NCBI RefSeq assembly: GCF_003334335.1 | Contig: NZ_QOWQ01000201.1 | Length of the DNA stretch: 368 nucleotides | Reading direction: 5' to 3' (one strand) | Source of the DNA: Escherichia coli | Lineage (GTDB): Bacteria; Pseudomonadota; Gammaproteobacteria; Enterobacterales; Enterobacteriaceae | Shown here: positions 1-368 of the stretch, one piece after another | Numbering within the stretch: the stretch's first letter is position 1 | How the letters are laid out: each line of letters begins with the position of its first letter | The notes under the pieces: generated by a model | Seen by the model: only the letters and a program-made list of their open reading frames with translations | Told to the model about the DNA's origin: nothing | The model's database searches: none | Translations under genes and position numbers: made by a program

Positions 1-368
1 GCCCTGGGGATAACGGCAAAACAGATTGCTGATGCCACAGGAAAGAAAAACATGGTGTCGCACTGGTTCAGTGCCAGCCAGTGGCAGCTACCGGACGAAA
101 GCGATTATCTGAAATTACAGGCGCTGTTTGCCCGGGTGGCAGAAGAGAAGCATCAGCGCGGAGAACTGGAAAAGCCACATCACCAACTGGTCAGCACATA
201 CAGTGAACTGAACCGGCAGTATACGGAACTGCAGAGTGAATATAAGCATCTGCGGCGGTATTTTGGTGTGACGGTGCAGGTGCCGTACACCGATGTGTGG
301 ACGCATAAACCGGTGCAGTACTATCCCGGGAAACATCCGTGCGAAAAACCGGCAGAAATGCTGCAGCA
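1..368 (+). CDS. DNA methyltransferase (N6-adenine/N4-cytosine, N6_N4_Mtase-like), internal fragment truncated at both window edges
   Basis: Seen in sequence: frame +1 (codons starting at nt 1) translates without any stop across all 122 codons: ALGITAKQIADATGKKNMVSHWFSASQWQLPDESDYLKLQALFARVAEEKHQRGELEKPHHQLVSTYSELNRQYTELQSEYKHLRRYFGVTVQVPYTDVWTHKPVQYYPGKHPCEKPAEMLQ. Codon use is strongly biased (9 of 11 Leu codons are CTG; CCG, GCG and CAG are frequent), as expected for a real enterobacterial-type gene. Established knowledge: 'H-P-x-x-K-P-x-x-L' (here HPCEKPAEML, nt 334..363) is the conserved block that precedes the FxGSG AdoMet-binding motif I in beta-class amino-methyltransferases. Inference: the DPPY catalytic motif lies upstream and motif I downstream of the window. 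The missing ORF-track entry for this frame fits an ORF that has no stop inside the window. Confidence 0.8.

Follow-up and report, generated by a model that had tools for sequence, protein, structure and literature searches.

A heptad-bearing linker helix in a prophage adenine methyltransferase of Escherichia coli, probably a fixed descendant of an in-frame 21-nt tandem repeat

The closest described relatives of the enzyme considered here are M.EcoGII and M.EcoGI, two non-specific N6-adenine methyltransferases encoded by prophages of E. coli O104:H4 C227-11 (Murray et al. 2018, PMC5778455; Ochiai et al. 2024, PMC11551740). M.EcoGII methylates adenine in DNA and RNA independently of sequence and is silent in lysogens, and an enzyme much like it was noted by its describers in phage 1720a-02 (PMC5778455). 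Enzymes of the beta class present an N-terminal DPPY motif, then the recognition domain, then the FxGxG motif (PMC5778455). M.EcoGII lacks an experimental structure, and the structural statements made about it, including those below, therefore rest on predictions (PMC11551740). In the published AlphaFold2-multimer model, residues 1-134 and 260-349 make up the Rossmann domain, residues 160-237 form a recognition domain modelled as a four-helix-bundle helix-turn-helix (HTH), and a charged two-helix linker lies between the two (PMC11551740). The authors of this SUPREM paper blamed the flexibility of the linker for failed crystallisation, and suggested that non-specific nucleic-acid binding is helped by the charged surface which recognition domain and linker present (PMC11551740). 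Published descriptions of M.EcoGII thus speak of a charged flexible linker only, or of no unusual elements (PMC11551740, PMC5778455). Variable repeats in a helical spacer are known from the Type IC specificity subunits EcoR124I, EcoR124II and EcoDXXI, in which two versus three 12-bp TAEL units correspond to an N6 to N7 change of the spacer (PMC3874165).

The window, that is, the whole stretch of 368 nt analysed in this study, is open throughout in frame 1 and represents an internal part (codons 172-293; positions 1-368, plus strand) of the gene for a 352-aa beta-class N6-adenine DNA methyltransferase, WP_137466585.1. It is matched at 100% within an annotated DNA-methyltransferase CDS of E. coli JE86-ST05. 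The full protein is matched by the Pfam profile N6_N4_Mtase (PF01555; E = 1e-42), and its beta-class membership is borne out both by this significant profile match and by a fold match to solved members of the class. The catalytic TDPPYF (aa 34-39, with DPPY at 35-38) precedes the recognition domain and the SAM-binding FFMGSGS (aa 309-315, with FxGxG at 310-314) follows it, the region covered by the window lying between the two motifs. Compared with the M.EcoGII sequence printed in Table S1 of PMC11551740, 330 of 349 residues are identical (95%), the printed sequence having been machine-read, so that some of the 19 differences may be OCR errors. Judged by sequence, the gene product is an M.EcoGII orthologue, and from the same 95% identity it would be expected to methylate adenine in DNA and RNA without regard to sequence. 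M.EcoVT2Dam was considered as an identity and dropped, because a methylome paper lists this GATC-specific enzyme apart from M.EcoGI and M.EcoGII and because of the 95% identity between the window protein and M.EcoGII. The minus-strand open reading frames of the window overlap the strongly conserved plus-strand gene, and an Rfam search of both strands of the window returned only chance matches below threshold.

The window was matched in 1,908 of 5,426 complete E. coli genomes, the E. coli matches numbering 2,603, and Stx2-converting phages as well as phage 1720a-02 match it at ~94%. In JE86-ST05, the gene belongs to a lambdoid prophage, where it is found directly downstream of the antiterminator Q gene, with a tRNA Ile/Arg/Arg cluster on its other side and no restriction gene annotated near it. 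At L001 (4240-7601, the window being L001:6001-6368), this placement of the methyltransferase gene between Q and the tRNA Ile/Arg/Arg cluster corresponds to the layout of the Q-to-stx region in Stx phages. After the tRNAs, TerB-family and DUF3927 genes stand in place of stx at this locus, followed by a SASA-family esterase gene, presumably NanS-p-like, and by lysis genes. The place of the methyltransferase gene just after Q suggests late, induction-dependent expression, which would fit the silence of M.EcoGII in lysogens.

Three heptads whose a position is Tyr and whose d position is Leu occupy positions 199-261 (plus strand, aa 238-258). They were read in frame 1 exactly as the first-pass annotation had given them: YSELNRQ at 199-219 (TAC AGT GAA CTG AAC CGG CAG), YTELQSE at 220-240 (TAT ACG GAA CTG CAG AGT GAA), and YKHLRRY at 241-261 (TAT AAG CAT CTG CGG CGG TAT). 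A fourth, more degenerate heptad, HHQLVST, stands ahead of the three in the same register (178-198, H = a and L = d). The double period-7 identity (i/i+7/i+14 plus i+3/i+10/i+17) arose in 0.4% of whole-protein shuffles and 0.2% of central-segment shuffles, this shuffle test being post hoc. The Y-x-x-L-x-x-x periodicity proposed over the three heptads is thus rare in shuffled sequences, and it is independently upheld by the conservation among homologues described below.

The same annotation had read the heptads as an internal duplication at the DNA level. The periodicity holds for the protein, but the DNA retains only a weak, decayed repeat. The units share 11 to 13 of 21 bases (52-62% identity), with a longest common run of ~6 nt. 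The period-21 self-match of 25/42 is the highest among the in-frame periods of the window; it was attained by 0.35% of codon shuffles when period 21 alone is considered, a share that rises to 5% once every in-frame period between 3 and 60 is admitted. Synonymous resampling yielded 22.4 +/- 2.2 self-matches (p = 0.18), so the DNA similarity does not exceed that imposed by the amino acids. Neither Tandem Repeats Finder nor a second repeat finder made a call at 199-261, and high-identity head-to-tail DNA units are not present in the window.

Two other small repeats were observed in the window. One is a 17-nt direct repeat, 82% identical, at 142-158 and 238-254 (96 nt apart; GAAGAGAAGCATCAGCG and GAATATAAGCATCTGCG), encoding EEKHQR and EYKHLR and perhaps left over from more decayed units in the extension of the helix at aa 204-223; its 32-codon spacing is 4 off the heptad register, and chance can yield a two-copy match of that length. 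The other, at 69-88, consists of two copies of a 10-nt unit (CAGTGCCAGC) at 90% identity according to Tandem Repeats Finder; it codes for the conserved SASQW motif and is probably due to chance.

To place the heptads within the protein, we used an AlphaFold2 model of the full protein built on a 126-sequence alignment (mean pLDDT 94.2, pTM 0.89). Predicted helices span residues 146-158, 160-173, 177-184, 187-194, 204-223 and 238-255, and residues 139-144 are disordered. The HTH pair of the target-recognition domain (aa 177-184 and 187-194; positions 16-69, plus strand) is supported by this model, by a weak Pfam HTH_3 match at aa 167-195, and by the published model. The last helix of the recognition domain (aa 204-223; 97-156, plus strand) is defined by the model and by per-column gap fractions, its E/K-rich extension at aa 216-223 being missing, column by column, from 12-83% of distant homologues. 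It is followed by a confidently modelled, non-helical segment (aa 224-237, GELEKPHHQLVST; 157-198, plus strand) that contains HHQLVST and is delimited by the DSSP and pLDDT values of the model and by the conservation of aa 231-235. Helix 238-255 lies inside the three heptads, with block-mean pLDDT of ~91-94. Hence, the amphipathic helix suggested for this site from the sequence agrees with the structure prediction, and the E/K/Q/R-rich surroundings noted with it are real and consist of helix 204-223, a structured loop and helix 238-255.

The heptad tract ends in the conserved anchor R256-R257-x-F259 (253-264, plus strand), which leads into the catalytic domain. Conservation and structure alignment place the re-entry into the Rossmann domain at 283-351 (plus strand), with PYTDVW (aa 266-271) and HPCEKP (aa 283-288); D269, W271, H283, K287 and P288 are invariant or nearly so in the family alignment, and the alignment with solved beta-class methyltransferases picks up again at aa 264-282. 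The 349-aa and 352-aa proteins share their residue numbering around the linker, as checked on a 349-aa homologue. With the published linker bounds, this shared numbering identifies aa 238-259 as the C-terminal half of the charged two-helix linker of the M.EcoGII AlphaFold-multimer model (PMC11551740), in agreement with the earlier suggestion of a linker element.

Conservation within the E. coli clade is concentrated on the two core positions of the heptad. Among ~120 homologues of 74-95% identity, L241, L248 and L255 are invariant, Y245 and Y252 reach at least 95%, and Y or W occupies position 238; R256 and R257 are present in all of 121 close sequences, and R257 and F259 are conserved at 90% or more in the 126 sequences of the alignment. 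The b, c, e, f and g positions are variable. Mean entropy amounts to 0.28 bits at a and d versus 1.07 bits at the other heptad positions (Mann-Whitney p = 0.016, the sequences not being independent of each other). The Y/L periodicity is therefore kept in homologues, near-invariant in this close set and retained down to 35-45% identity. The charge pattern of the family consensus is mostly gone from the E. coli units, which carry N, Q, S, T and H at such positions, and the Tyr and Leu stay.

The segment ahead of the three heptads shows a constancy of its own in the E. coli-type clade. HHQLV (aa 231-235; positions 178-192) is near-invariant there (H231 in 114 of 118 sequences, H232 in 116 and L234 in 117), and a Pro at aa 230 (175-177) precedes it in most aligned sequences. 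In distant homologues, the columns of aa 224-237 are filled by further YEDLRRE units or by gaps.

No unit-number variant was found among 120 cluster representatives (74-95% identity) and 33 cluster members with a readable segment. Deletions of ~10, 13 and ~33 aa do occur in the clade; they are rare, confined to few members and never correspond to whole heptads, and these forms are probably defective or mis-assembled copies. Two other length changes touch the same region. One E. coli-clade homologue (...AAEKFQEQQLEQQLEQPHHQL...) bears a 4-aa (12-nt) duplication, EQQL, immediately ahead of the heptads within the stretch that extends helix 204-223, which adds another small polymorphism of an in-frame repeat to this linker region. 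P0001 (386 aa, from a Logan assembly, a single member) has a tandem duplication of 34 aa that stretches from the last heptad as far as the HPC motif (YKHLRRYFGVTVQVPYTDVWTHKPVQFYPGKHPC, near-exact copy); this 102-nt duplication may be real or may have arisen in assembly.

A protein search over 1.84 billion representative proteins recovered many full-length homologues at 35-46% identity, and these present a different picture at the homologous site. In the homologous alignment columns, Y-E-D-L-R-R-E can be read four times, with gap fractions that climb stepwise toward the N-terminal side. The family consensus at the heptads is YxxLxxxYxxLRxEYExLRRPF, and ~110 homologues of 35-45% identity have 87-96% aromatic residues at a and 79-97% hydrophobic residues at d. 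Single homologues contain literal tandem heptads (YEDLRRE, YDDLKRE, YEDLRQD, YDALRAN, YEELRTE and others), with ~1 to 7 units per homologue, and all perfect-repeat homologues end in ...LRRPF. At least three consecutive identical heptads, and up to 7 units, were counted in 62 proteins, a sample biased by a query that itself bore the repeat. At the DNA level, the homologous site consists of 21-nt arrays of 4.5 copies at 100% identity, 5.7 copies at 98% and 4.8 copies at 98%; such high-identity head-to-tail arrays (98-100%) occur at L002, L003, L004 and L007. Arrays also show block-wise growth of variant units, e.g., three copies of YKHLRRD followed by three of YEDLRRD.

Moreover, the number of units differs between otherwise identical alleles. 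One-unit differences with 100% identical flanks (309-328 aa) separate P0299 from P0309, P0285 from P0287, and P0314 or P0319 from P0379, and the series P0280/P0285/P0287 has 4, 3 and 2 units. The P0299 and P0309 genes differ by 1 mismatch and one 21-nt indel over ~1.1 kb, the longer allele being found on at least 15 contigs and the shorter one on 3 contigs from 3 samples. These alleles come from metagenome assemblies, in which short repeats can mis-assemble; the arrays measure 95-120 nt and the alleles recur independently. The slippage suggested by the first-pass annotation is thus sustained for the family, in which copy number is polymorphic, and not for this E. coli allele, for which no variants were found.

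Homologues carrying the repeat are 35-60% identical to the window protein and lie on phage-like contigs, among genes for helicases, primase, SSB, VRR-NUC, WhiB and Prim-Pol and many small ORFs; no restriction gene was recognisable around the distant-homologue loci examined. Near perfect-repeat homologues, L007 (1973-2961, 4055-6274) encodes two WhiB-like proteins and a Prim-Pol/AAA_25 primase-helicase, L006 encodes helicases, SSB, VRR-NUC and Tad4, and L005 a UvrD-like helicase and a sigma factor. The family appears to consist of orphan phage methyltransferases that are widespread well outside enterobacteria.

Altogether, we consider it probable that the heptads form the amphipathic return helix of an interdomain stalk and are the fixed, diverged descendant of a 21-nt tandem repeat. 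Helix 238-255 would be the return half of this stalk, leading from the inserted HTH domain (aa 160-237) to the C-terminal half of the Rossmann domain. This helix displays a conserved Tyr(a)/Leu(d) stripe, its other positions being mostly polar or charged, and it ends in the invariant RR-x-F. The stripe would pack on the outgoing linker helix (aa 146-158) along a seam formed by Y147, L154 and V158, which are conserved hydrophobic positions of that helix in the alignment, and this packing would give the two-helix stalk described for M.EcoGII. The ancestral repeat would have been an in-frame 21-nt repeat with the unit YEDLRRE, in the register g-a-b-c-d-e-f = E-Y-E-D-L-R-R. In other phage lineages, the repeat is still homogeneous and grows or shrinks by whole units, and in the E. 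coli allele the number is fixed at three units in the helix and a fourth that has been remodelled. We infer that the E. coli units and the perfect repeats are homologous from their alignment position and from the shared a, d and RR-x-F residues, not from DNA similarity.

The consequences of adding a unit can be sketched from helix geometry. Each unit would add two helical turns (~10.5 A) and shift the hydrophobic face by ~-20 degrees, and with a face phase so nearly constant, copy number would alter the length of the stalk without turning the recognition domain. A 6- to 7-unit homologue is modelled with a single continuous 45-residue helix (pLDDT ~80-87, pTM 0.70), which argues that extra units extend one helix. 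On the other side of the stalk, the outgoing linker levels off at ~27 residues, the repeat side ranging from 21 to 81 (length correlation r = 0.55, without phylogenetic correction). A simple one-to-one pairing of the two helices thus fails in many-unit members, since the outgoing linker saturates while the repeat side grows. The disordered residues 139-144 of the outgoing linker could absorb slack. At the short end of the range, P0146, P0152, P0225, P0241, P0250 and P0254 are natural homologues with ~1 heptad, the outgoing linker measuring 5 residues in P0225, P0241, P0250 and P0254 and 27 residues in P0146 and P0152.

A different use of the stripe, which we judge unlikely, would be an intermolecular coiled coil, formed between the heptad helices of the two subunits and contributing to the obligatory homodimer of beta-class enzymes. 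The consensus E-Y-E-D-L-R-R has the classic layout of such coils, its a and d positions being hydrophobic, its g acidic and its e basic. The elution of M.EcoGII is that of a dimer, and enzymes of the beta class are believed to work only in dimeric form. A coil between subunits would tolerate changes in copy number, both chains altering together, in keeping with the polymorphism and the fixed length of the outgoing linker, and the exposed Tyr/Leu stripe of a 45-residue helix would need a partner. Weak Pfam matches of coiled-coil type point the same way (Myosin_tail_1 at aa 213-257, E = 0.036; HALZ on two homologues). However, the E. coli protein has ~2.5 helical heptads, short for an autonomous coiled coil, and Tyr at each a position is unusual in dimeric coils, which counts against this pairing. 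Moreover, the published AlphaFold2-multimer interface is placed at residues 97-110 and 116-140, and the linker is described as an intrachain two-helix structure (PMC11551740). It is on this published model description that we would prefer the intrachain stalk.

Still less probable, and indeed quite improbable in our view, is a free-standing single alpha-helix of the ER/K-like type, in which salt bridges from i to i+4 would hold the recognition domain at a distance. In the consensus YEDLRRE, E(b) could pair with R(f), R(e) with E(b') and R(f) with D(c'), and the long unbroken helix of the many-unit homologue comes with a lower pTM, as would be the case for a flexible stalk; the linker flexibility blamed by the SUPREM authors for failed crystallisation (PMC11551740) also speaks for it. 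Nevertheless, the strongest constraint falls on the aromatic a and the Leu d rather than on the charges, which speaks for packing, and the E. coli units have mostly lost the charge pattern while retaining the Tyr and Leu. An actively slippage-prone 21-nt repeat in this E. coli allele, yielding in-frame length variants, is largely refuted and has next to no likelihood left, for although other lineages have a true variable-number tandem repeat at the homologous site and period 21 gives the best in-frame self-match of the window, the units are no more alike than the protein dictates, Tandem Repeats Finder is silent, the unit number is the same in all close homologues read, and the rare deletions do not remove whole units.

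Beyond the intrachain stalk that we favour, a more ambitious hypothesis could be that the heptad array is a slippage-driven length ruler, by which phages tune the distance of the recognition domain from the active site of the partner subunit; we hold this to be doubtful. If such a ruler exists, stalk steps of ~10.5 A, added or removed without turning the recognition domain, would set the footprint of the enzyme, the range of its substrates (double- or single-stranded DNA, RNA) or its sequence preference, and the frozen three-unit E. coli form would be the length matching fully non-specific methylation. For the annotation of this window the gain is ordinary: it covers an inner portion of a well-known prophage methyltransferase, the repeat of which is stable in this allele. 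[quoted passage not shown] A literature search for 'YEDLRRE' and for heptad or tandem repeats together with methyltransferase gave no match, and the heptad periodicity and the copy-number-variable tandem repeat of the family are apparently undescribed. Short-stalk natural homologues are candidate targets for structure determination, and the addition or removal of whole heptads offers a rational route to engineer linker length. The natural range of ~1 to 7 units also raises the question of whether stalk length affects specificity or substrate range, as the number of TAEL units does in Type I systems.

Set against the known systems, the structurally solved beta-class enzymes M.MboIIA (1g60), M.BceJIV (8urk), CcrM (6pbd) and M.RsrI (1eg2) share the core only: ~200-220 of the 352 residues align structurally, the sequence matches run over aa 8-142 and then over 264-345 with a break between, and aa 143-263 are without apparent counterpart. 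M.EcoGII is like the window protein in its 95% identity over 349 aa, in the DPPY - recognition domain - FxGxG order, in being prophage-borne, and in its heptads, which fall at the same residue numbers (YSELNRK YMELLSE YKNLRRY). The window protein departs from it at 19 residues, some of them perhaps OCR errors, and has a C-terminus 3 aa longer; the M.EcoGII papers model the region as the helical part of a charged linker, not as a heptad repeat or the relic of a variable one. Canonical leucine-zipper coils have in common with the heptads the period of 7, the hydrophobic a and d, the acidic g and basic e of the family consensus, and the predicted helix; unlike them, the heptads have Tyr instead of an aliphatic residue at a, number ~2.5 in helical form, and in the E. 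coli protein have mostly lost their charges at e and g. Slippage-prone repeats are also known in beta-class methyltransferase genes, namely, in the phase-variable Type III mod genes, in which units of 1-5 nt shift the frame and switch expression on or off; the 21-nt heptad unit, by contrast, stays in frame and alters protein length only. The nearest analogue in concept would be the TAEL repeat, likewise a short in-frame tandem DNA repeat in a helical spacer, there of a restriction-modification recognition module, whose natural copy-number differences change helix length. The TAEL unit is 4 aa (12 bp) versus 7 aa (21 bp) for the heptad array, and it sits between two recognition domains of the separate HsdS subunit, whereas the heptads lie inside the methyltransferase itself, at the junction of recognition and catalytic domains. 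For TAEL the change of specificity with copy number is proven.
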